DNA from: Escherichia phage phiEB49
Sequence record: JF770475
Strand: one strand, 5' to 3'
Length of the DNA: 47,180 bases
The notes under the pieces are model-generated. The model saw only the letters and a list, made by a program, of their open reading frames with translations. It ran no database searches and was not told where the DNA came from. The position numbers and the translations under genes were made by a program. This document shows, one piece after another, positions 10,898 through 35,377 of the stretch. Every line of letters begins with the position of its first letter. The first letter of the stretch is position 1.

Positions 10898-10909
10898 GAG
10901 GTGATAAAA

Positions 10910-11383
10910 GTGAGTGAAATTGATAAGCGTACTCTTAACGGTAATAACGGAACAATACGAACAGAAGACAAGAAGCCTCGGAAACGACCGTCAGGTTACT
11001 ATGTTTTAAAGGATGAGGTAAGGGCGGGATTGAGGGCAAGACTTGAAATTGTTTTAGACTTTTACGGCAGCAAGGCGAATATGGCGAAACAATTGAAGGT
11101 TACTCGCCAGGCTGTTGAGGAGTGGTTTAATCGCGGCATGATGTCGGCGCGCGGTGCTCAGCTAGCTCACAATCGATACAAGCGAACAGGTGAGGGCTTT
11201 AGAGCTACATTCTGCCGTCCAGATCTTCAATTTGACGGCAACGGTAAGCCTCTCACTCTTCGTTGCAAAAAGCGCCACATGCTTCGCGTGGTTACTGATG
11301 CTGAATTAGCAACTAAGCCTGAGTGCCGTTCATGGCGCAAAATTAAAGCCGCAAACGAAGCAGCACGAAAAGCTAAAGAGTAA
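10910..11383 (+). CDS. HTH DNA-binding protein (Cro/YdaS-like), candidate transcription regulator
   Basis: GTG start with SD GAGGTGA; helix-turn-helix-like segment SKANMAKQLKVTRQAVEEWFNRG; basic C-terminus. Confidence 0.5.
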   Translation: MSEIDKRTLNGNNGTIRTEDKKPRKRPSGYYVLKDEVRAGLRARLEIVLDFYGSKANMAKQLKVTRQAVEEWFNRGMMSARGAQLAHNRYKRTGEGFRATFCRPDLQFDGNGKPLTLRCKKRHMLRVVTDAELATKPECRSWRKIKAANEAARKAKE

Positions 11384-11389
11384 CAATTG

Positions 11390-11423
11390 AGGTTGTGCCA
11401 TAATCGGTGCAACCTTTTTTATT
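11390..11423 (+). terminator. intrinsic terminator followed by ATTGGAG SD cassette
   Basis: GGTTGTGCC-ataatc-GGTGCAACC followed by TTTTTTATTGGAG. Confidence 0.6.
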
Positions 11424-11426
11424 GGA

Positions 11427-12377
11427 GTGAATACAGTGAGCGAGATAAGTTACCAAAAAGAAGAAGTCCTGCCGTACATGAAAGGCTTGTGGAGGGAGGC
11501 GCTCCAGTCTATATGCGGCCTTAATGATTCATACTTTAGCAAAAAACACGGCCCGTGCCCCCATTGCTCGGGAAAAGACAGGTTCCGCTGGACTGACAAC
11601 ATTAACTCTCCTGGTGACGGCGGGGCTATCTGCAACCAATGCGGTAATGACTCTGGCGTTGGCTGGATGATGAAATTGACTGGTGAGCCTTACAGTGAGG
11701 TGATTAATATTCTGGGTCGATTCCTTGGTAAAGTTCCGCAGGATTACAAGGCAAAGGCTTACCGCAGAGCATCGCGAGTACCTGAGAAAGGATTGGGTAA
11801 GATGTCTGACCATGAGTCATGCTTGGATGTAATGGAGCGCACAGAGAAACGCGAGAGTACTGATTTAAGCTTGTATGAGTGTTTGACTGAGGATTCGTAT
11901 GATGTTGGTGTAAAGTTGCGCAAGGATGGCTCTGAGGAGCTAATACACGCACTGCCATGCTATATGGTTCATGCTGATGGGGTTGATGATGAAATGTGTA
12001 ACGTAATGTTCGCTTATGATAACGGCGAATACACCTTTCTGGCTCGTGATTATTCGCGCGGCTCAGTGGTTAAGCTTGGAAGCGGAGAGGAGGATGCAGC
12101 CATATATATGACAAGCGATCTTATTGATGGCTACCGAGTTAAGATGGCAACCAGTCAGGAGGTGTGGGTTACTTTCACACCAGAGAACCTTGAAATAGTG
12201 GCCTATCGTTATCGCGGGGAACGCGAGTTGCGGGCAGCTTGCCTTCCTGATGATTTGCGAACTCTTTATCTGGCTGATGAGCGAGATTTGAAAGTGGTCG
12301 TGCCTAACCATGGAAACTTCAAAATGGGACTTGAGCGAAGGCTATATAAACCACAAGATCTGATAGATAAGTGCTAA
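11427..12377 (+). CDS. putative DNA primase (zinc-ribbon domain)
   Basis: HGPCPHCSG..(19)..CNQCG resembles primase zinc-binding domains; GTG start. Confidence 0.5.
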   Translation: MNTVSEISYQKEEVLPYMKGLWREALQSICGLNDSYFSKKHGPCPHCSGKDRFRWTDNINSPGDGGAICNQCGNDSGVGWMMKLTGEPYSEVINILGRFLGKVPQDYKAKAYRRASRVPEKGLGKMSDHESCLDVMERTEKRESTDLSLYECLTEDSYDVGVKLRKDGSEELIHALPCYMVHADGVDDEMCNVMFAYDNGEYTFLARDYSRGSVVKLGSGEEDAAIYMTSDLIDGYRVKMATSQEVWVTFTPENLEIVAYRYRGERELRAACLPDDLRTLYLADERDLKVVVPNHGNFKMGLERRLYKPQDLIDKC

Positions 12378-12385
12378 TGAAAATT

Positions 12386-12408
12386 ACCCGCTTCGGCGGG
12401 TTTTTTTA
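12386..12408 (+). terminator. intrinsic terminator
   Basis: CCCGC-ttcg-GCGGG followed by TTTTTTT. Confidence 0.7.
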
Positions 12409-12422
12409 TGCAAGGAAGATGG

Positions 12423-12449
12423 TATACTTTATTTTAGCAAATCGTGCTA
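12423..12449 (+). promoter_or_regulatory. TATACT -10 element with dyad in operator position (+1 to +15)
   Basis: TATACT 12423-12428 directly followed by TAGCA-aatcg-TGCTA 12435-12449; SD TAAGGA before ATG 12476. Confidence 0.4.
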
Positions 12450-12475
12450 TCAACTTAAATTAAGGATTTACAATT

Positions 12476-15469
12476 ATGGCGATTTATGACGCGGGCACTG
12501 CCTCGCTAGATGCTGATGGTACAGTTACTGGCGTAGGGACAACCTGGCGACAACCACTAACGCTCATTCGCGTTGGTGCAACAATGATTTTCAATACATC
12601 ACCGATTAGCATCGTGACAATCGCTGAGATCTTGAGTGATACAAGCATTCGCGCGTTTAACGATAAGGGATTTATAGCTCCGGAAGGCACTCAGTATTTC
12701 ATCCTGGCTCATGACGGGATTACAGTTCAAGGGCTGGCTCAAGACGTCGCTGAGACTCTTCGTTACTATCAGTCAAGTGAGACGCAGATTGCGGATCTTG
12801 TTGAGCTTGCTAAGTCTGGTGATTTTGATTTTGATAAGTTACAGCGATTAGTTAATGAAGCAAAGGCAAGCGAAACAAATGCAGCATCAAGCGCATTGGC
12901 AGCATCAGCCAGCCAGCAAGCTGCCGCTACAAGCCAGACTCTGGCTGAATCAAGCGCAAGCAGTGCGCAAGCGGCATACAATAACACGGTTGATGTTATT
13001 GCTAATGCTGGTGATGCTGGAACCTTGGTTACGCTTGCTAATATTGGTATAGCTACAGATTCAACACCGCTAATAAATAACTTCGATTGGCAGAATTTTA
13101 CCTTTAAGTCAGGAGGACTTTATCGCGCCAATGTTTCATCAATGATGAACACCCCGGGCGATATCACTTTAACCTTCGGTGAATCCATAGCTGCCTTATG
13201 TATTCAAGTTATATCAAAGTCAAGTAATACAACAACGCACTCCTTAAGGGTTGTATCTCAGTCATCAACAAGCAACCAGTATAGCAGGGAAATTTACATC
13301 CAGTTTACAGGAGCGCCTGGCGCAAGGGTTTTTGCACCAGGTAGAGAAATGGTGATGGTTGGGGCTGGCAAGTCCGGAGGTGGAGCTACGGCATCGAGGG
13401 CTAGAAACTTACTTGATGTTTACTCAAAAGCCGAATCTGACGCAATAAGGACAATTGCTCTTGGTGGGAACTTTCAGGATGGAATGACTATCCAGTCGAA
13501 AAGCCAGCAAATCTTAAATGTTAAAAATGGAATTGCGGAGGCTTATGTGTGGGCGGGGTCACTCCCTAAAGTTGTTCCAGCAAACTCAACGCCTGAAACA
13601 TCTGGCGGGATTGGTGATGGAGCTTGGGTTCAGCTTGGCGGATACTCTTCTGGTGTTAGCTCTATTTATGACTTAATTAACAAACAAGCACAACCTCAGT
13701 CAATTGTGAATGTTAAGTCTTATATTTCTGGCTCCAATTCTGGTGGTGGTGTTTTCTATTGGAGCGAAACAACTCCAAAAAGTAGACACAATGGGGTTAC
13801 AGTGTTCAGCCCCACCGTTCCATTTGACGGAACGCATAGCGGAATTGCTGATTTCATTTCCGCTTCTGGCGAATCTGATCCGTCAGGTCTTGGGTGTTGG
13901 GTTCGAATCACCTCTGGATTTGATGAAATTCACACCGAATGGGCTGGGCATGATGTTTCTGGCATCAACACATCAAATGCATCAGTAATGAAGTGCATTC
14001 AGATGGGTCACGAACAGTCAAAGACTGTGAGACTCAGTGCAGGAAGGCTAAAAGTCTCTTTCGACAATGGGGTTCAGTACAACGACAAATATAGTGTTTT
14101 TAGGCAGACTGCCTTTTTCTTGAGCGGCTTAAAGGTAAAGATTTTTGCCAAAAACGATGTAGAGATTGATATATCAGCGAGCTCTTCTCCGGAAAGGGTT
14201 GTTTTTGGACTTAAGGGTTGTGATTTCATCGCTGAAGGCTTTAACTGGAATAGTGATTTTTCAGACTATTCAATCGGTGAATCAGACACAACTCACAGGG
14301 CTAGGGAAGACTGGTTTGGATTCCTTGCTGAAGGTTGCTCATCAGTTGTTGTTGATAAGATGATTGTTAACGCCTCAAGGGCATTCATAAACGCTGATGC
14401 TTTAAATGGAGACTCAAACGCATTCATTGCCCTAAGGAACTCAAAGTTTAAATATAACGTAAACTACTGCCTGATAACCAGGAATTGTGACTATTCTGAA
14501 TTTATTGGAAATGAAACAAAGCAGTCTGGTAGGGTGTGGCATACTTATGGTGAGGACTATGCGATTTCAGAGCGCAGCAGAAGGTCTTATGCTCACAACA
14601 ATAAGTTCTATTATCCTATATCCATCCAGTCAAGGATAACCCCAGCTGGAGAGAACATAACAGTTACTGATAACTATTATGCTGGCTCAGGGATTTTTGT
14701 TGAAGCCTTCGCTTGTAACAATGTGATATGTAAGGGAAATACAAGCATTATTACAACCGACTCTGTTGGCAGAGCGTCGTCTCACTATCTTTTGATAACT
14801 AACGACGATTCCAATGATTGGGGTGTTAATGAAGGATTGAGTAACATCATTATATCTAACAACATAATGATTGGAGGGGGAATATCTGTGCAGGGTTACA
14901 ACGAAGGGGTGCAGGTTAAAAATGGATTGATTATCACAGATAATACAATGACTGATACAAAAGCGCCTGTGCTTGGTGCTTCGTCGTGGGTTGGAACTAC
15001 ATTCTCTGGTAACAAATGCAGGTTTACACCTGGATATGGTGGCCTTGGGGTTGGAGGGCAGTACCCTACAGTCAGCAATAACATTATAGACGGTGGGTAT
15101 ATTTCGTGCAGGTTTGGGTATGAAATAACATCACCAACGTTTGAAAACAACATTTTTAGAAACACAACTGGAGCGACACTATCAACCATTTTTGATATTG
15201 ATAGTTTTTCTGGTGGTATTTTTAGAAACAACAACTTCAGGGCCTCTAGCTTCCTTATGGTGTTCCCAATTAACGATAACGTTGTTAAGGTTGGTTTTAG
15301 ATATGTTGACTATGGTTTCAGTTCAAGGCCAACAGATACGTATGGTTCAAAGTGCGTAATTAGAGCTGGTGACTGGATTATTAACGACAACCCATCAACT
15401 TATGGCTCTGCTGCTGCCTGGATTGGTGGATCAAACGGTGCTTATCTTCAACTAAGTACTGCTGTATAA
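12476..15469 (+). CDS. tail fiber / tailspike with beta-helix-like C-terminal region
   Basis: N-terminus MAIYDAGTASLDADGTVTGVGTTW typical of tail fiber N-domains; C-terminal NNI/GN-rich repeats suggest parallel beta-helix. Confidence 0.65.
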   Translation: MAIYDAGTASLDADGTVTGVGTTWRQPLTLIRVGATMIFNTSPISIVTIAEILSDTSIRAFNDKGFIAPEGTQYFILAHDGITVQGLAQDVAETLRYYQSSETQIADLVELAKSGDFDFDKLQRLVNEAKASETNAASSALAASASQQAAATSQTLAESSASSAQAAYNNTVDVIANAGDAGTLVTLANIGIATDSTPLINNFDWQNFTFKSGGLYRANVSSMMNTPGDITLTFGESIAALCIQVISKSSNTTTHSLRVVSQSSTSNQYSREIYIQFTGAPGARVFAPGREMVMVGAGKSGGGATASRARNLLDVYSKAESDAIRTIALGGNFQDGMTIQSKSQQILNVKNGIAEAYVWAGSLPKVVPANSTPETSGGIGDGAWVQLGGYSSGVSSIYDLINKQAQPQSIVNVKSYISGSNSGGGVFYWSETTPKSRHNGVTVFSPTVPFDGTHSGIADFISASGESDPSGLGCWVRITSGFDEIHTEWAGHDVSGINTSNASVMKCIQMGHEQSKTVRLSAGRLKVSFDNGVQYNDKYSVFRQTAFFLSGLKVKIFAKNDVEIDISASSSPERVVFGLKGCDFIAEGFNWNSDFSDYSIGESDTTHRAREDWFGFLAEGCSSVVVDKMIVNASRAFINADALNGDSNAFIALRNSKFKYNVNYCLITRNCDYSEFIGNETKQSGRVWHTYGEDYAISERSRRSYAHNNKFYYPISIQSRITPAGENITVTDNYYAGSGIFVEAFACNNVICKGNTSIITTDSVGRASSHYLLITNDDSNDWGVNEGLSNIIISNNIMIGGGISVQGYNEGVQVKNGLIITDNTMTDTKAPVLGASSWVGTTFSGNKCRFTPGYGGLGVGGQYPTVSNNIIDGGYISCRFGYEITSPTFENNIFRNTTGATLSTIFDIDSFSGGIFRNNNFRASSFLMVFPINDNVVKVGFRYVDYGFSSRPTDTYGSKCVIRAGDWIINDNPSTYGSAAAWIGGSNGAYLQLSTAV

Positions 15470-15500
15470 AAAAAGCCCCGAAAGGGGCTTTATCTTTTAT
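15467..15500. terminator. bidirectional intrinsic terminator
   Basis: AAAAAAA-GCCCC-gaaa-GGGGC-TTTATCTTTT between convergent genes. Confidence 0.7.
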
Positions 15501-15919
15501 CCGTTTAATCCTTCTCCGTTTTCTGCGTGCCATTGCATATGGTGAGCTTGGCATAGCCATCTTACATCCATTGGTTTTGAGTAATCATCATGATGAGCTA
15601 CCGCCTTATCATTCCCGCAAACCTCGCAAGGTTTTTTATTGATCTCACCATCCCTTATCGCGTTATTTAAAATCGTGTGGCAATTATATTTTATGGGGTT
15701 TCTTGATCTATACTCCTTAACGTAACCATCCTTCTGTCTATTGCCCTTTTCTCTATCGTACTCTCTGTAATATTCTATTTTTGATTTTCTATTTGATTTA
15801 ACATCAACCTTATTGCATTCCTTACACTTATTTACACGTCCGTCAGCCATGGCTTTATGTTTATAGAACTCCGTGATGGGCTTAAGCCCACCACATTTGA
15901 AACAGCCTTTATAGTACAT
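15497..15919 (-). CDS. HNH endonuclease (zinc-finger type)
   Basis: CEVCG..AHHDDYSKP..WLCQAHHMQWH; ORF track 15497..16054 trimmed to ATG 15919 because the upstream part overlaps SSB. Confidence 0.6.
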   Translation of the reverse strand: MYYKGCFKCGGLKPITEFYKHKAMADGRVNKCKECNKVDVKSNRKSKIEYYREYDREKGNRQKDGYVKEYRSRNPIKYNCHTILNNAIRDGEINKKPCEVCGNDKAVAHHDDYSKPMDVRWLCQAHHMQWHAENGEGLNG

Positions 15920-16370
15920 AAATATTTGACATACCGTACTGAAGACCAATGGGAGCAAACGGAATATCGTCTTCAAACTGGCTTTGATGCTGTGGTTGCT
16001 GCCGCTGCTGTTGCTGAGGCTGCTGGCGCTGTTGCTGTGGTGCTGATTCCCCACCTCGCTGGCTGAACATCAATCGAGGATTCTGCAACTCAAGCGTAAT
16101 ATAAACCTTTCCATTATGCTCACGCTCATTAACCGCCAATGAATCACCACTCACAGAAATAACTTTCCCTTCCTGAAATGCTTCATCATACCAACTAATC
16201 TGCGCCTCACTGGCAAACATCGTAATCCGGTAATTACTGTACTTACGCTCGCCATCTTTAGTCTTGTATGATTCGCTCATCTCGATGGCGTACATTTTCC
16301 AGTTACCTTTGGCATTCTGACCATCTTTAGTGTAAGGAGCTTTGCGAATCTGACCTGTAATTACGTGCAT
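15909..16370 (-). CDS. ssb: single-stranded DNA-binding protein
   Basis: OB-fold-like N-terminus, Gln/Pro-rich linker, acidic tail ending DDIPF. Confidence 0.8.
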   Translation of the reverse strand: MHVITGQIRKAPYTKDGQNAKGNWKMYAIEMSESYKTKDGERKYSNYRITMFASEAQISWYDEAFQEGKVISVSGDSLAVNEREHNGKVYITLELQNPRLMFSQRGGESAPQQQRQQPQQQQRQQPQHQSQFEDDIPFAPIGLQYGMSNIYVL

Positions 16371-16417
16371 GTTATTCTCTCTTCTCGTTTGATTTTGGGG
16401 CCTAAGCCCCGTTTAAT

Positions 16418-18654: not shown

Positions 18655-19284
18655 TTAGTTCAGTTTCAAAATCTCGCTATTTTTATCAACCAGCTTATTA
18701 ATCAACTCATCCTTATCGTTTAACTTCTGGCAAAGAATTTCACACTGAGATTGATATGAGTAAACTAACTCCTGAGAATCGAAGTATCTACTAGAATCAA
18801 ACTTAAGCTCATACATCTTCTCGTCAACCTCTTCACCATTTGAAGCCTTATCAATGTACTTATAGATAATCTTCTCTAGCTTGTAAACTTCATCTTCGGC
18901 GCGATTTCGTGCTGCTAGCTCCTTGTTGGTTTGCAGCCTCTCCTTCAACACCATGTCGTAAGATACCATTTTTGCCATATGTTCCTTAAGTAGTTTGTTT
19001 TCCCTCTCAAGAACCTTAATCTTCTTAATCATGTTCATTCTTGCTTTTGCGCTATATTTTGCAACAAGGCAAATGGTGTGATCTTTGTCGAGAACTGCCA
19101 CATTGTGCATCTTTCCATTATGGTATTCTTGCTCCTCAAATTGAGGAGCACTACCTTCACCATACAGCTCAACGTACATCGCCTTAACATCCCTCATTAC
19201 GTTATCGTGACGAACATCAACAATTTTAGCAATATCAGCGGTTGTCATGGTCATCTCTTCATCAACTTTAATAATATCCATCAT
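18655..19284 (-). CDS. Rha-like phage regulatory protein with coiled-coil C-terminus
   Basis: N-terminal TTADIAKIVDVRHDNVMRDVKAM resembles Rha family; first gene of leftward operon from control region B. Confidence 0.5.
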   Translation of the reverse strand: MMDIIKVDEEMTMTTADIAKIVDVRHDNVMRDVKAMYVELYGEGSAPQFEEQEYHNGKMHNVAVLDKDHTICLVAKYSAKARMNMIKKIKVLERENKLLKEHMAKMVSYDMVLKERLQTNKELAARNRAEDEVYKLEKIIYKYIDKASNGEEVDEKMYELKFDSSRYFDSQELVYSYQSQCEILCQKLNDKDELINKLVDKNSEILKLN

Positions 19285-19726: not shown

Positions 19727-19772
19727 AATAGCACGATTTGCTAAAGACTCCAGCAGCAGCCTTTGCTATAGT
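19727..19772 (+). promoter_or_regulatory. dyad-motif promoter
   Basis: Core 19729-19743; 23-nt spacer; TGcTATAGT 19764-19772; leader CATCGAAACGAAAC and SD AAGGA before ATG 19813. Confidence 0.5.
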
Positions 19773-19812
19773 TACTCCATCGAAACGAAACACACTTACT
19801 AAGGAATACAAA

Positions 19813-20043
19813 ATGACTAACTTCATCAAATCAGCAATCATCGCAGCAGCAGTAATCATGACAGTAGGTTGTTCTTCTGGCCCGCGCCCTGACGGCTGGT
19901 GTGCGACTGAAGTTAACGGTTCTTGTGTTGCTAAATGGAAAGGCGGTGTAGTTGTAGCTTCAGGTGAAACTGATATCCGCTGGGATGGTATCAAGAACTT
20001 CTCTGGCTCAGTTAAAGATCACGGCACAAAGGAGTGGAAATAA
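19813..20043 (+). CDS. cor: Cor-like superinfection-exclusion lipoprotein
   Basis: 76 aa, lipobox MTVGCS, located next to J as in phi80/T1-type phages; ORF track 19738 start trimmed to ATG 19813. Confidence 0.5.
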
Positions 20044-21005
20044 TGCCTCAAGGTATCTTAATAGACCTTAATGACGGAAGGCCAAGAATGGAGATTACGG
20101 CAGGGTTAAGAGCCCCAGCCGTAACAGGAAGCCTTAGCAGCGGCTCTACGTTCGATTCTGCTAACAGCACCAGAGACTTCAGTCTAACAATGACTCAGGG
20201 CTCTACGGCCTTTATATTGCCCACAAAGGCTGTTGATGTTTATGACTTCGACTTTATACCAGAGGTTTATTTCATGAATGGATTCTCAAGGGTTAATAAC
20301 TCAACAGGTAGGATAAGCATAGGAAACTTCAATGGATCATCAGGACACCTGATTGGGTTCGGAGCTCAGGGCTTCGAGGTCCTTGGAGCGTCATCTGGAA
20401 GTGAGGGTATATTTGTTAGTGACTCGACAAATTTCACGGCGATAACATCAAACTCAAGGCTTCTTACTGCTCAATATGTTGGTTCCGTTACAGTTAACGG
20501 CAGCTACACCCTACCAATAACAGGAATACCTTTTGCAAGATGGAATAACGCTAACGTGACGCTTGAGTTTGACGGAACAAGGCTGCTATGTACTAACAAC
20601 ACGTACACTGGAATTGATAACGTTACAGGTTCAGTAACAATTGACCTTGTGATATTTAACAATACCGCACCAACTGCTGGCCCTGGGTTAACAATGTCAA
20701 ACGCAGCTGGTCAGATTGTGTTCTCAAGCGTAAAGAGGCCATTTGTTCTAAGTGGATTCTTGCAGTTATCTAACTCATACCAATCTATAGGAGGTGGATT
20801 CTTCCCAGTACTACGATGCGGCGCTATGGTTGAGGTTACTGGAGGATATAACAACCTAAGATATAAAGGCGTTGCAATGTCCAATGGTCAGGTTAGGGCG
20901 CACAAAGGAAGCGTTTACGGTAACTACTCAACCCAGTCAGGCGCAAACTTTCCATTCAACACCAACATCTCAATGCAGCTGCCTTACATACCAAGCATGT
21001 ACTAA
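20043..21005 (+). CDS. Ser/Thr/Asn/Gly-rich protein, possible tail-fiber-associated or receptor-binding protein
   Basis: About 320 aa, beta-rich low-complexity composition; ATG overlaps Cor stop (TAATG); convergent with J. Confidence 0.4.
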   Translation: MPQGILIDLNDGRPRMEITAGLRAPAVTGSLSSGSTFDSANSTRDFSLTMTQGSTAFILPTKAVDVYDFDFIPEVYFMNGFSRVNNSTGRISIGNFNGSSGHLIGFGAQGFEVLGASSGSEGIFVSDSTNFTAITSNSRLLTAQYVGSVTVNGSYTLPITGIPFARWNNANVTLEFDGTRLLCTNNTYTGIDNVTGSVTIDLVIFNNTAPTAGPGLTMSNAAGQIVFSSVKRPFVLSGFLQLSNSYQSIGGGFFPVLRCGAMVEVTGGYNNLRYKGVAMSNGQVRAHKGSVYGNYSTQSGANFPFNTNISMQLPYIPSMY

Positions 21006-21034
21006 AAAAGGCCCCAGAAGGGGCCTATATTTTA
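21003..21034. terminator. bidirectional intrinsic terminator
   Basis: AAAAAA-GGCCCC-agaa-GGGGCC-TATATTTT between convergent genes. Confidence 0.7.
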
Positions 21035-24000
21035 ATTCCAAACTCCAACTACAACCCTTCCTCCGCCAGGTAAGTTAACAGTGATTCCGTTACCGTTAAT
21101 CTGAACAGTATTACTTGTTCCGTTAAATGCGAAGTTACCATTGTTAGCGTACAGGCTACCGCGAACAGTGGCGTTACTTAACTCAGCAAAACCAGATTTA
21201 TCAATTGCCCATCCAGCGCTACCTGCAACATAGTTGTTTGATTGAATCCTGTTACCAATCTTAGCGTTAGTAATTGAACCATCCTGAATCACCGCGCTCT
21301 GAATGAACACCTGGTTATTCTCGACAACGAAAGGCAGCGACCACTGACCGGAACCAGAGCTAATGCCGTTGCTGATTGCGAACCTGTTAGCATCGAAAAT
21401 GAACTGACTACGAACGTTTCCACCACTTCCAGTTAGCTCCATGCTCATACCGGCGCCATACTCAACTCCATTGTACTTCAGGCCAAGCTTAACGCCGTAC
21501 TGAACACCAACGCCTTCAACTGTAGCGTAAGAATCAAGCTTCTGATTTAACGCCGCTGTATTCTCACCTAGTTGCGCAGTTAATGCGGTATCTGCCGTAG
21601 CCCTTGCTTCCGTCTCCGTAGCTAGAGCGGTTTCAATTGTCGTAATCTGTCCAACAATCTCATCATCAATCTGCGCTTTGAGCTCCGTGAGGGCGTCTAC
21701 ACGGGCTTGAGTTTCATCAGCAATCAAACTCACGGCCTGACGATATTCAGCCTTCCTGTTAAGATTCTCCTTTGTCATAACGCGTACATCAGTATCGTTT
21801 GCTAGAGCGTTCTCTATAATTGCCTCAGCCTGATTCTGGATGTCAGTATTTGCATCAATAGCGTTCTGGAGAAGATATTTGTACCCATCAGAGTTTTCGA
21901 TATCAACCTTTATATCGCCAATGATCGCACTTACATCATCGGATGCCATGCCTCTGACAAAATCAGTCCATGGAGATACGTTACCTATCCTGTCAATAAT
22001 CCTCGCCCTGTACCACCTCACGTTTCCTGCTGGAAGAGTTGTGTGCCAGTACTCATATTGAGGGTAAGGAACCAGCGTAAGCAGTGATGCGTTTTCTGGA
22101 TTGTATGTACCGTAACCATTATCAGGAACCTGCTGAATCTCAGTGTACGCAGTATCGGCTGAATCAGTAGGAAACCCCCACTTAACCCTAATCCCGAAAA
22201 CCTCATCATCAGACGCGGTAATTACAGGCGGCGCTGATGGCTCTCCAATCTTACCAGTCAAGCTGACTGTCGTTATTTCAGACCATGCCGATACTGATTT
22301 TTGGTCAGTTACAGCACGAACCCTGACGTCGTAAATGCCAGCGTAGATACCTTCAATATCAACTTCAGTGTTAGCCGTCTCGGGAACGTTAATCCAGTTT
22401 CCGTTATTCTTACGCCATTGTACGTTGTATGTTTTCGCATACTGCACCTTGTCGTAACCGATAACCATGGTCTCAACGCTTAATCCCTGAACTACCTTAC
22501 TGTAGCTAGTAACGGTGATATTTTCAGGTGGTAAAATCCTGTCAGGGTCAACGATGCTTGTTGGCCTGTCATCGATGTTTACTCCGTAGTCGATCTCATC
22601 GTACTTGTTAGGGTCATACTGAACAGCTGTGATGCTGTACTGGAATGAGTCCTCGCCGTCCGTGTTAGCTTTTTGAATCCCGGTAACCACATATTGCTGC
22701 AACGCAAGATTCTGCTTGTCGATTGCGAATACCGTATCAGGCTGGGGCGTGAAGCTGAATGCTGTATTCAGTTCAAGCGTAAGCTTATCAGCAGATACGG
22801 AAGCGATAGTCCTGTACTCCGGGCTTCCATCTGGCTTGTTGATTAAAATCCTGTCGCCAGGGTCAGCATCAATAGCGAACGGAACAAAAACCTGTAATCC
22901 TGTAGCTTCAACGATTCGACCCGAAAGGTTCAATGTGTAGTTGCTAGACCACGCCTGGTCATTGACAGCAATTACATCACCAATCATAGGAATCATGCCT
23001 TCCAGGCCAGTTGTGAAAGTTACCGTTTCACTGCGAAGGTTTGTTTTCAGCAACCATCTACCTCGACGGTTAGCCTCACTACGCCTTACGCAGCCAATTG
23101 CGGTCAGGTCTACAGGGTTGTAACCAAATCTACGAGTCGCCTCAAGGTCAAATACTGGCTCGACATCTTGCTGATAGTTATTCTCTACGTCATCAAACTG
23201 AACGTTTGCAGTCGTGTAAAGAGACTTATCACTAGAGAATGTCCTGTTAAACAATCCATCAACAACGTTATCATTGGTGAATACATAGCTAGGCTGGCGC
23301 GGCCTGTCTACAACAATCCCGATTTGCTCACCGTCATAGAAGGTTAGACCTCGGAAAATAGAACAGATGTCACGAATAAGCTGATAAGCTTCCACTTTCT
23401 GCTGAATGACAACGTTACAAGTATATCTCGGCTCCATCCCGCCTTTGCCGTCCGGAACCATCTGGTCACAGAATTGCGCAGCTTCATACAGGCCCCACTT
23501 ATCAATCTCTACACCAAGCTCCCGCTGGTCCAGGCCGTAACGCTGACTAACCACCAGGTCATATAAAACCCAGGCTGGATTATCAGACCATGCCATTTTA
23601 AAAGTGCCATCCCAGGTTCCGCTATAAGTACGAGTCTCTGGGTTGTAGTTTGTTGGTACACGGATAATCTTCCACTTCTTCTTAATAGCTATCGTTGGGA
23701 TGCCGTTTGGGAAAAGGTCAGAGCTGAACTCAACGTAAACAAGAGCCGTAAGAGGGTAGCGGAATTTAGCGTCGATTACTTCCTGATAGGTTGTAATCTG
23801 CATCCCGTTAACCAGTGTGCTGCTTGTTGAGTCCGGAGTTAACTTCCTAATACGAACAAGAGCGCTGCTAAACTCTGCTGGTAAGTTAACCCTGATACTG
23901 CGGTCGTAACCTGTTGTAGTTTTACCGTTAGCCACGCCTCTGGTATATTCCGTGTACGCTGCGCCATTAACTGATAAATCGATTGCATATTCGCATGTTG

Positions 24001-24460
24001 TACCATTTAAATCTCCATTCTCTTCTTGTTTAACTAGTCGAGGCCAGAACAGCTTGACTCGGATTGCTGATAACTGACTGTTGTTAACTGCGATGATGTA
24101 AGGCGTATCGTTGTTAATCTCACGGCTAACCTGAATCTCCGACGCAGCACCATCTAGTCCTGCGATGTAATCTTGGGATTGAGTGCCAGGGCGAAACTCA
24201 GCCGTTACACCTTCGTAGTTGAATGAGTTGTCCTGGTTCTGTACGGGAACATCAGCAAGGTAGAGATCCTTTAGTGAGAAACTTGAGTCAACCTCACCAT
24301 CAGCAACCGCCAACAGAACCTTAATCTTGTTAAGTGAAATCAGGTTATCTTCTTGCTCTACAGGCGTGTGCTGCTTCTGGCTTCCACCCTTGCTTCCATA
24401 AATCTTTGGCAAATCGGTCATATCATATAACCTCGTTGTTTGTTTAACCATTTGTGCCAT
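21032..24460 (-). CDS. J: central tail fiber / host specificity protein (lambda J-like)
   Basis: 1142 aa; N-terminal GSKGGSQKQHTPVEQEDNLIS matches the lambda J N-terminal signature; possible true start at ATG 24421. Confidence 0.85.
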   Translation of the reverse strand: MAQMVKQTTRLYDMTDLPKIYGSKGGSQKQHTPVEQEDNLISLNKIKVLLAVADGEVDSSFSLKDLYLADVPVQNQDNSFNYEGVTAEFRPGTQSQDYIAGLDGAASEIQVSREINNDTPYIIAVNNSQLSAIRVKLFWPRLVKQEENGDLNGTTCEYAIDLSVNGAAYTEYTRGVANGKTTTGYDRSIRVNLPAEFSSALVRIRKLTPDSTSSTLVNGMQITTYQEVIDAKFRYPLTALVYVEFSSDLFPNGIPTIAIKKKWKIIRVPTNYNPETRTYSGTWDGTFKMAWSDNPAWVLYDLVVSQRYGLDQRELGVEIDKWGLYEAAQFCDQMVPDGKGGMEPRYTCNVVIQQKVEAYQLIRDICSIFRGLTFYDGEQIGIVVDRPRQPSYVFTNDNVVDGLFNRTFSSDKSLYTTANVQFDDVENNYQQDVEPVFDLEATRRFGYNPVDLTAIGCVRRSEANRRGRWLLKTNLRSETVTFTTGLEGMIPMIGDVIAVNDQAWSSNYTLNLSGRIVEATGLQVFVPFAIDADPGDRILINKPDGSPEYRTIASVSADKLTLELNTAFSFTPQPDTVFAIDKQNLALQQYVVTGIQKANTDGEDSFQYSITAVQYDPNKYDEIDYGVNIDDRPTSIVDPDRILPPENITVTSYSKVVQGLSVETMVIGYDKVQYAKTYNVQWRKNNGNWINVPETANTEVDIEGIYAGIYDVRVRAVTDQKSVSAWSEITTVSLTGKIGEPSAPPVITASDDEVFGIRVKWGFPTDSADTAYTEIQQVPDNGYGTYNPENASLLTLVPYPQYEYWHTTLPAGNVRWYRARIIDRIGNVSPWTDFVRGMASDDVSAIIGDIKVDIENSDGYKYLLQNAIDANTDIQNQAEAIIENALANDTDVRVMTKENLNRKAEYRQAVSLIADETQARVDALTELKAQIDDEIVGQITTIETALATETEARATADTALTAQLGENTAALNQKLDSYATVEGVGVQYGVKLGLKYNGVEYGAGMSMELTGSGGNVRSQFIFDANRFAISNGISSGSGQWSLPFVVENNQVFIQSAVIQDGSITNAKIGNRIQSNNYVAGSAGWAIDKSGFAELSNATVRGSLYANNGNFAFNGTSNTVQINGNGITVNLPGGGRVVVGVWN

Positions 24461-34561: not shown

Positions 34562-34807
34562 TTATTTGTACTCGTTACCAGTCTCAGCTTCGGAGATGGT
34601 TTTCGGTTCTTTGCGCTTCTTCTTGCTAACAATTTCTTGCGCGATCTGTTTGGTTGCTTTAGCGTCACCTTCGATGGTCAGTTTACCATCTGCGATTAAA
34701 CGCTTGAGTCCGTCGCAAATTGCATCAACCTCGAAAGTGTCACCAGGTAAATATTTCTCACCCTTGTAAACGATAAGGCAAGCGCCAGTGTGTTCTAAAC
34801 GAATCAT
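34562..34807 (-). CDS. hypothetical head-associated protein (81 aa)
   Basis: ORF track. Confidence 0.4.
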   Translation of the reverse strand: MIRLEHTGACLIVYKGEKYLPGDTFEVDAICDGLKRLIADGKLTIEGDAKATKQIAQEIVSKKKRKEPKTISEAETGNEYK

Positions 34808-34852
34808 TTTTATCTCCTTTGTTTATCTGATTTGGTGATTATACGTCAATAG

Positions 34853-35377
34853 CTAAACTCTAGCAAATTCCTTGCATAGCTCCCTCTGCTTTTCTTCGTA
34901 AGCTAAAGCCGCCATCTCTGCCGTTTCGAAGTACCCTAAGTTTATTTCCTTCCCATCATACCTTAACCTAGCCCTACATCTGCCAGTTTGTTTAAAGTAT
35001 GACACACCCTTAAACCCGCTTGAGTTATCTCTGTGTGCTTTTTTGTTTGCGCTGTTTTGCTTTCTGTTAGCAAGTCTTAGATTTGATATTGAATTATTTA
35101 TCCCATTCATATCAATATGATCAACCTCGAATCCATACGGTATATCCCCATTCGCCACTATCCATAATAATCTATGAGCTAAGTGTGACTTCCCATTTAT
35201 AGAAATCCTGATGTATTTAGGGCCTGACTTGCACTCAAGCAATGAACCAGCGACTTTTCCGGCATTCCTTCCATTCCATTGCGGACTTAAATCATCCCTA
35301 TACTTCCATTTGATTAATCCAGTCTTAAAATCAACATCAAGTATCTTGTTTATCTCTTCTTTTTTTGGGTATTTCAT
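34853..35377 (-). CDS. HNH homing endonuclease with AP2 domain
   Basis: HRLLWIVANGDIPYGFEVDHIDMNGINNSISNLR motif. Confidence 0.7.
   Translation of the reverse strand: MKYPKKEEINKILDVDFKTGLIKWKYRDDLSPQWNGRNAGKVAGSLLECKSGPKYIRISINGKSHLAHRLLWIVANGDIPYGFEVDHIDMNGINNSISNLRLANRKQNSANKKAHRDNSSGFKGVSYFKQTGRCRARLRYDGKEINLGYFETAEMAALAYEEKQRELCKEFARV

Follow-up and report, generated by a model that had tools for sequence, protein, structure and literature searches.

What does gp24, a 997-amino-acid (aa) protein that Escherichia phage phiEB49 encodes apart from its tail module, do for the phage, and how is its gene set off from its neighbors? The window analyzed here is the whole phiEB49 stretch (JF770475, 47,180 bp). 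A 2014 taxonomy paper placed this phage in the T1-like 'Jk06likevirus' group, and in megablast comparisons its left 24 kb showed 84 to 87% identity across about 65% to the Rogunavirinae phages Opt-719, AKS96, Rogue1, and e4/1c. We conclude, with a probability of roughly 0.7, that gp24 is the side (lateral) tailspike of this T1-like siphophage, that it is specific for the O6 antigen and most likely an endoglycosidase, and that it is transcribed from its own promoter. As such it is a normal, already described kind of T1-like phage feature and not a novel type of system. Only three points are new: the assignment of gp24 as the likely O6 spike, its four-module anatomy, and the argument for a hydrolase over a lyase. 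The gene lies as follows, and PHROG 24092, 'tail fiber protein,' spans its product over the full length.

12476..15469, plus strand: gp24, lateral tailspike/receptor-binding protein (ATG start, 997 aa plus stop, 100% identical to phiEB49 gp24)

The C-terminal part has a tailspike-like fold. The sequence-only reading had pointed to short Asn/Gly/Ile-rich repeats in this part, and aa 531 to 997 are indeed rich in S, G, N, and I. The PbH1-type rung motif [IVLFMC]x[NDGK]Nx[IFMCVL] occurs eight times in aa 530 to 997 and is absent from aa 1 to 529, while shuffled sequences contained 0.94 +/- 0.96 copies and none of 1000 shuffles reached 8. Six consecutive copies fall within aa 793 to 916 at a spacing of 23 to 27 aa. 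An AlphaFold2 model (mean predicted local distance difference test score [pLDDT], 74.6) was confident over aa 390 to 997, with aa 500 to 997 mostly at 85 to 98 and arranged in the short-strand pattern of a beta-solenoid; it was poor for the anchor, the stalk, and aa 297 to 390. The top Foldseek matches in the PDB were HK620, CBA120 TSP2, DpK2, Depo32, and Acinetobacter spikes (E of about 1e-6, 9 to 14% identity), and distant members of the gp24 family pass Pfam Beta_helix or Pect-lyase_RHGA_epim. As modeled, the C-terminal 600 aa are a right-handed parallel beta-helix of the tailspike/pectin-lyase-like fold, and the beta-helix that had been suspected from the letters is upheld by rung periodicity, strand pattern, structural matches, and homologues alike. 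No solved structure was close enough to give the enzyme class. A profile search of PDB sequences returned weak matches for the cap to AlgE epimerases, a GH55 glucanase, and a GH110 galactosidase (E of 0.005 to 0.03), which are not enough to assign one. We infer that gp24 forms trimers and that its first 110 or so residues attach it to the tail. Regions that need the trimer in order to fold would be modeled poorly in a monomer, as were the stalk and the tailspike N-terminal domain (TSP_N), but this proves nothing.

Evidence on the likely ligand comes from the host side. In a 2025 study, phiEB49 gave 0 plaque-forming units on waaL, wzy, and waaG mutants of CFT073, and plating returned on complementation. 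The same study found the K2 capsule to be dispensable for the phage and a barrier at 37°C: loss of the capsule left plating on CFT073 normal at 20°C and greatly improved it at 37°C. Phages with the same type of spike recur on O6 hosts. ACG-M12 lyses O6:H1 uropathogenic E. coli isolates and CFT073, and the gp24 beta-helix is 77 to 80% identical to P0004/P0012, which were taken as the ACG-M12 spike by matching length and overall identity. UALMA_PCEc3, whose spike is of the same type and 59% identical overall, was isolated on ATCC 25922, a strain that carries the O6 antigen. For three phages with spikes 32 to 37% identical to gp24 (536_P11, LF31_P3, and T147_P1), host O-types were not found in the literature searched. 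Since gp24 was the sole protein with a glycan-enzyme fold identified in the phage, in a scan that took in part of the open reading frames (ORFs), since it occupies a locus that tracks O-type, and since its spike type recurs on O6 hosts, we infer that it is the O6-specific receptor-binding protein. Its beta-helix most likely recognizes the O6 surface sugar of urinary-tract E. coli, a prediction drawn from sequence comparison together with the host data.

The nature of this sugar bears on the chemistry. The O6 repeat unit of ATCC 25922 consists of 3 hexoses and 2 N-acetylhexosamines (892 Da), so that a lyase would find no uronic acid in it and an esterase no O-acetyl group; beta-elimination and esterase chemistry are therefore unlikely. 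On the protein side, D537, E573/R574, E611, D641, R686/E693, E743, and H770 are conserved in at least 93% of the 27 family members compared, which range down to 23 to 30% identity. No lyase family matched gp24 in Pfam or NCBIfam, the latter giving no match at all, and among lyase-type families the distant homologues match only the generic PF12708 cap. With no family match, and with a probable substrate that lacks uronic acid, gp24 does not group with the polysaccharide lyases. Our best guess is a putative O6-specific endoglycosidase, retaining or inverting, or else a plain binder, either being favored over a lyase. The earlier suggestion of a pectate-lyase-like depolymerase thus stands for the fold and probably fails for the chemistry. 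In the mechanism that we propose, the gp24 beta-helix would bind the O6 O-antigen of hosts such as CFT073 and most likely cut it in the manner of an endoglycosidase, with conserved Asp/Glu residues from consecutive rungs serving in catalysis (candidates E573, E611, D641, E693, and E743). This interaction would bring the tail tip to the outer membrane and would be required for infection of smooth O6 strains.

The plain binder is the strongest competitor, although we consider it unlikely. In that case, gp24 would be a nonenzymatic O6-binding spike, an adhesin-type beta-helix that holds the phage on uncut O-antigen; a generic fold and strict O6 dependence would suit it equally as far as recognition goes, but the Asp, Glu, Arg, and His residues on successive rungs that persist to 23 to 30% identity are typical of an active-site groove. 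Moreover, most characterized O-antigen tailspikes with the beta-helix fold are enzymes, HK620 and CBA120 TSP2 among them, and in the BASEL papers, spikes of this sort are regarded as enzymes.

A target other than O6 appears improbable. Here gp24 would act on another glycan, such as the lipopolysaccharide core or enterobacterial common antigen, and the need for O6 would stem from a different protein, for example, the J-like tail tip or a partner. The phage does encode a 1142-aa J-like protein, along with unassigned adjacent genes, and ACG-M12 lysed some O-rough strains. Against this, gp24 was the only glycan-enzyme fold found in the ORFs scanned, it is encoded at the hypervariable locus whose variation follows O-antigen type in Drexlerviridae, and its spike type recurs in phages isolated on, or lysing, O6 strains. 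Least probable is that gp24 degrades K2 or another acidic capsule, as a depolymerase or polysaccharide lyase. In favor of this, gp24 has its N-terminal anchor in common with the Klebsiella K2 depolymerases Depo32 and DpK2, and K5 lyase, K1 lyase, and alginate lyases are among the structural matches; however, the Depo32 homology stops at aa 199, Pfam gave no pectate-lyase match, the genetically required O6 antigen lacks uronic acid, and the K2 capsule of CFT073 is unneeded and blocks phiEB49 at 37°C, so the phage evidently cannot clear it.

Several observations nevertheless weigh against the assignment of gp24 as an O6-cleaving spike with its own promoter. Pfam Beta_helix stays below threshold on gp24 itself (17.6 bits versus a cut-off of 25.9), and the best structural matches are a mixture of epimerases, GH110 galactosidases, the adhesin PfbA, and tailspikes at 9 to 15% identity, so the fold gives no specific enzyme class. 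The 2025 paper on O6 dependence mentions neither gp24 nor any tail protein. Because ACG-M12 lysed some O-rough isolates, the spike may not be an absolute requirement in all hosts. As for the promoter, which is a consensus-level prediction described below, a promoter scan did not list the box upstream of the spike gene, and the pattern of that box is not enriched in the genome (10 matches versus 7.7 expected).

The proposal that gp24 is exchangeable was addressed by BLASTP comparison of the protein with 119 homologues, combined with region-wise identities. Breakpoints among the homologues were sharp, at about aa 155, at aa 321 to 328, and at aa 390, and the protein divides into four modules.

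12476..13045, plus strand: module A (aa 1 to 190), a virion anchor (aa 1 to about 110) leading into a long alpha-helical segment (aa 89 to 189), from the Depo32/DpK2 match and model helices
13073..13363, plus strand: core of module B (aa 200 to 296), a small beta-strand domain with five strands in the model (pLDDT of about 78 to 89)
13442..13639, plus strand: module C (aa 323 to 388), a TSP1/Gp66-type tailspike N-terminal domain (Pfam PF18668; E of 6.9e-19, 68.2 bits versus a cut-off of 25)
13643..15466, plus strand: module D (aa 390 to 997), the receptor-binding and probably catalytic part

Module A is the only part common to nearly all gp24 homologues. Nearly all share aa 1 to about 155, and more than 100 match up to about aa 155 or aa 321 and then diverge. 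The typical tail fiber anchor that had been noted at the N terminus was corroborated: aa 1 to 199 match the N termini of Depo32 and DpK2 (7VYV, 7VZ3, and 7LZJ; E of 4e-43) as well as several PHROG 'tail fiber protein' families, and the Depo32 paper assigned residues 1 to 185 as an anchor plus helical bundle. Many homologues continue to aa 321 and then carry unrelated C termini, which precomputed Pfam lists identify as Pect-lyase, Beta_helix, and peptidase-S74 types. A third group skips from about aa 150 directly to the TSP1/Gp66 N-terminal domain.

Module B, which ends at a conserved LLDVYSK joint near aa 320, has a history of its own. Over aa 200 to 320, gp24 is 85% identical to P0002 and 31 to 39% identical to ACG-M12-type spikes, and the module shows 79.5% nucleotide identity to phage Msk, whose C terminus differs. 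The domain at aa 200 to 296, between stalk and TSP_N, is swapped independently of the anchor and of the receptor-binding part. Module C has PDB sequence matches to CBA120 TSP1, TSP3, and TSP4 and to other spikes; it is absent from the ACG-M12-type homologues, and the monomer model is poor there (pLDDT of 30 to 45). Module D is laid out as an N-terminal cap (about aa 390 to 530), the right-handed parallel beta-helix (about aa 530 to 940), and a small C-terminal beta domain.

Phages of other families also carry versions of the receptor-binding part. Residues 333 to 997 share 58% identity with the Citrobacter phage K1M tail spike and 32 to 38% with spikes from siphophages (Kagunavirus) and podophages (Kayfunavirus and Vectrevirus). 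Members of the catalytic family are few: a full HMMER scan with aa 318 to 997 found 16 clusters at E of 1e-30 or lower among 1.84 billion representatives. An alignment of 36 sequences was assembled from a word-indexed search and the HMMER scan of these cluster representatives, and the precomputed domain PF27114 lies on gp24 and its homologues. Judged by these alignments, gp24 is a four-part mosaic, assembled from modules that phages exchange. Comparison with the receptor-binding proteins of related phages, with its shared anchor and swapped C termini, thus agrees with the idea of an exchangeable module.

Among known spikes, the closest full-length relatives are those of the Guelphvirus type, ACG-M12 gp31, ECH1, CEB_EC3a gp40, and UALMA_PCEc3, at 58 to 61% identity overall. 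They resemble gp24 in locus, in the box-dyad arrangement upstream, and in their O6 hosts; they differ in lacking the PF18668 TSP_N domain, in the divergent middle module (31 to 39%), and in length (936 to 942 aa versus 997 aa). Depo32 (phage GH-K3) and DpK2, from Webervirus Klebsiella phages, follow the same plan of anchor, neck, beta-helix, and C-terminal domain and are homologous over the anchor and helical bundle at aa 1 to 199. Unlike them, gp24 has two extra adaptor modules (aa 200 to 320 and TSP_N) and no sequence similarity past aa 199; homology to their carbohydrate-binding module was not detected, and its probable substrate is a neutral O-antigen rather than an acidic capsule. The HK620 tailspike (an endo-N-acetylglucosaminidase, 2VJI) and CBA120 TSP1 to TSP4 sit on podovirus or myovirus tails through anchors other than that of gp24, and at 9 to 13% identity to gp24, their catalytic residues are not transferable.

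The position of the gene, between a primase gene and recombination genes as the sequence-only reading had placed it, was verified. Primase (11427..12377; Zn_Ribbon_Prim, E of 1.7e-12) precedes gp24, and HNH, SSB, Erf, and exonuclease VIII genes follow on the opposite strand. Gene order is the same in CEB_EC3a (Braunvirinae), Opt-719 (Rogunavirinae), ACG-M12, and T1. That the gene lies apart from the tail module is therefore true but no peculiarity, since this is the published, conserved layout of Drexlerviridae and T1: the BASEL paper (PMC8594841) describes a Drexlerviridae fiber locus flanked by conserved syntenic recombination and primase/helicase genes in which the 5' end of the fiber gene alone is conserved. 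The locus as known from T1 ST26, the BASEL Drexlerviridae, and the Rogunavirus BECP10 shares with phiEB49 the position from primase to SSB/Erf/exonuclease VIII, the conserved N terminus, the bidirectional terminator at the 3' end, the hypervariable remainder, and a proposed role in O-antigen recognition. The alleles differ, in that T1 has a fiber, while BECP10 and Rogue1-type phages have O157-type spikes. The need for O-antigen also differs, being absolute for phiEB49 on CFT073, whereas the BASEL model deems the interaction dispensable on rough hosts. Virions of AHP24 contain a 124-kDa 'tail fiber,' which is too heavy for the lateral spike because that protein has about 870 aa in related phages; judged by mass, it is probably the J-like protein.

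Two strong terminators bracket gp24, as had been claimed, and both are kept in relatives.

12386..12401, plus strand: intrinsic terminator after the primase gene (ACCCGC-ttcg-GCGGGT followed by seven T residues; 6-bp GC stem)
15472..15491, both strands: bidirectional intrinsic terminator shared with the converging recombination operon (AAAGCCCC-gaaa-GGGGCTTT; 8-bp stem)

The upstream terminator is retained in Opt-719, CEB_EC3a, ACG-M12, and T1 with compensatory changes in the stem (CCCGC, CCCTC, CCTCC, and CCGCC), and it would insulate the spike gene from upstream transcription. The downstream terminator is near-identical in Opt-719 and CEB_EC3a, and the CEB_EC3a and T1 records annotate the bidirectional 3' terminator as two terminators. 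Every plus-strand gene in the island from 10901 to 15491 (helix-turn-helix regulator, primase, and spike) ends in a terminator of its own (11389-11416, 12386-12401, and 15472-15491, respectively), which suggests that they form three transcription units under separate control, in a region whose other genes lie on the minus strand.

Between the upstream terminator and the start codon of gp24 lie the elements predicted to control it.

12420..12428, plus strand: predicted extended -10-like promoter box, TGGTATACT, read from the sequence, with no convincing -35 element
12435..12449, no strand assigned: dyad TAGCA-N5-TGCTA (TAGCAAATCGTGCTA), 6 nucleotides (nt) downstream of the -10-like box and over the predicted start
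12462..12466, plus strand: Shine-Dalgarno-like AAGGA, 9 nt before the ATG, read from the sequence

The box aligns and is conserved as TGATACAAT or TGCTACAAT in Opt-719, CEB_EC3a, and ACG-M12 and as TGATAAAAT in T1. The same order of terminator, TGnTAnAAT-like box, 6 to 7 nt, dyad, 21 to 27 nt, and ATG is found at the fiber genes of CEB_EC3a, ACG-M12, and T1, while Opt-719 keeps the box without the dyad. Near the gene, an inverted-repeat scan with a seed of 6 and a minimum length of 8 picked up the terminators alone; the dyad, with arms of 5 bp, was found by direct pattern search. In the proposed mechanism, gp24 would be transcribed from its own extended -10 promoter, the start of which would be covered by the common dyad of the phage. 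A TACAAT at 12469-12474, 19 nt after the dyad, was considered as a -10 hexamer and rejected: transcripts from it would begin inside the ORF, beyond its conserved beginning MAIYD, and CEB_EC3a and ACG-M12 do not preserve the hexamer. It was treated as a chance overlap of the spacer between the ribosome-binding site and the ATG. In T1, ORF ST25 (34791-34934) overlaps the start of the tail fiber gene and covers the box-dyad region; its annotation may be a mis-call over the regulatory region.

The dyad motif is present at 21 genomic sites versus 2.27 +/- 1.55 expected, 16 of which are canonical.

589, 1266, 1729, and 19729, plus strand: canonical dyads
5557, 7050, 8485, 10881, 26279, 27986, 32928, 35433, 40580, 44961, 45277, and 46094, minus strand: canonical dyads

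The canonical copies always point the way the local genes run and, read in that direction, consist of TAGCAC-N4-TTGCTA, 21 to 23 nt, and a TATAAT-like hexamer, with no -35 element, and many continue into a conserved CATCGAAACGAGAGG leader. T1 has at least 15 sites of the canonical type. The dyad was not described as a phage motif in the literature searched. The operator-type dyad arrangement that had been ascribed to gp24 accordingly needs one correction: the dyad is there, and it is one of 21 genomic copies, but its position departs from that of the 16 canonical copies, whose center lies about 42 bp upstream of the predicted start, whereas at the spike gene the dyad lies over the predicted start. 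An RNA hairpin was rejected as the function of the dyad, as the leader fold (-6.8 kcal/mol) was no better than shuffles (z of 0.11), and a DNA-binding factor is thus the likelier reader. Candidate binders are a 160-aa helix-turn-helix protein (10901..11383) with a weak Cro-like match, annotated as a transcriptional regulator in relatives, and a Rha-like protein (18655..19284).

A dyad centered near -42 is of the activator type, and a dyad over the start, as at the spike gene, is of the repressor type. One speculative model, of which we are doubtful, is that a single predicted factor acts in opposite ways at the two kinds of site, activating the general promoters and repressing the spike gene or vice versa. 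An exchangeable cassette would thereby have a timing of its own, and it would be bounded downstream by an HNH homing hot spot that promotes recombination. Apart from this model, the terminators, the conserved predicted box, and the dyad agree with the earlier view that gp24 is insulated and has its own regulation.

The HNH gene (gp25; ORF 15497..15919/16054, minus strand) directly follows the spike terminator; Opt-719 and CEB_EC3a have no HNH gene there. ACG-M12 encodes an endonuclease at the same position, with 96% identity to the phiEB49 product. Nucleotide identity between phiEB49 and ACG-M12 is 64 to 81% in the last kilobase of the spike gene, 91 to 100% over 15509-16408 (HNH and SSB), and 50 to 66% in erf. 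The C-terminal end of an SSB is normally DDIPF, and the Opt-719 SSB stops there; in phiEB49 (ORF 15909..16370, minus strand) and ACG-M12, the SSB ORF runs 15 codons past it. This pattern of identities suggests that HNH and SSB represent a recent homing-type transfer of the endonuclease gene with a flanking gene, ending exactly at the spike terminator and excluding the spike. Elsewhere in the window, two ORFs lie on the plus strand at 19738-21005. The first, of 101 aa, has a lipoprotein-like signal (…TVGCSS…), and the second encodes a DUF6453 protein of 323 aa (Pfam E of 1.7e-136). This segment converges on the J-like gene (21032..24460, minus strand), and relatives encode superinfection-exclusion/receptor-binding accessory genes there.

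phiEB49 serves as a generalized transducing phage for uropathogenic E. coli. As an O6 spike with defined module boundaries and candidate residues, gp24 would offer an O6-specific binding or cleaving reagent for typing, and such a reagent would also be of use for decapsulation-independent targeting and for host-range engineering of T1-like phages. Beyond that, the spike confirms textbook modular tailspike exchange and raises no fresh question. We judge the promoter-dyad architecture and the HNH/SSB transfer tract to be more intriguing than the spike itself. Since transcriptional control in the T1-like family is poorly described, the promoter-dyad architecture of these phages may be the more useful lead.

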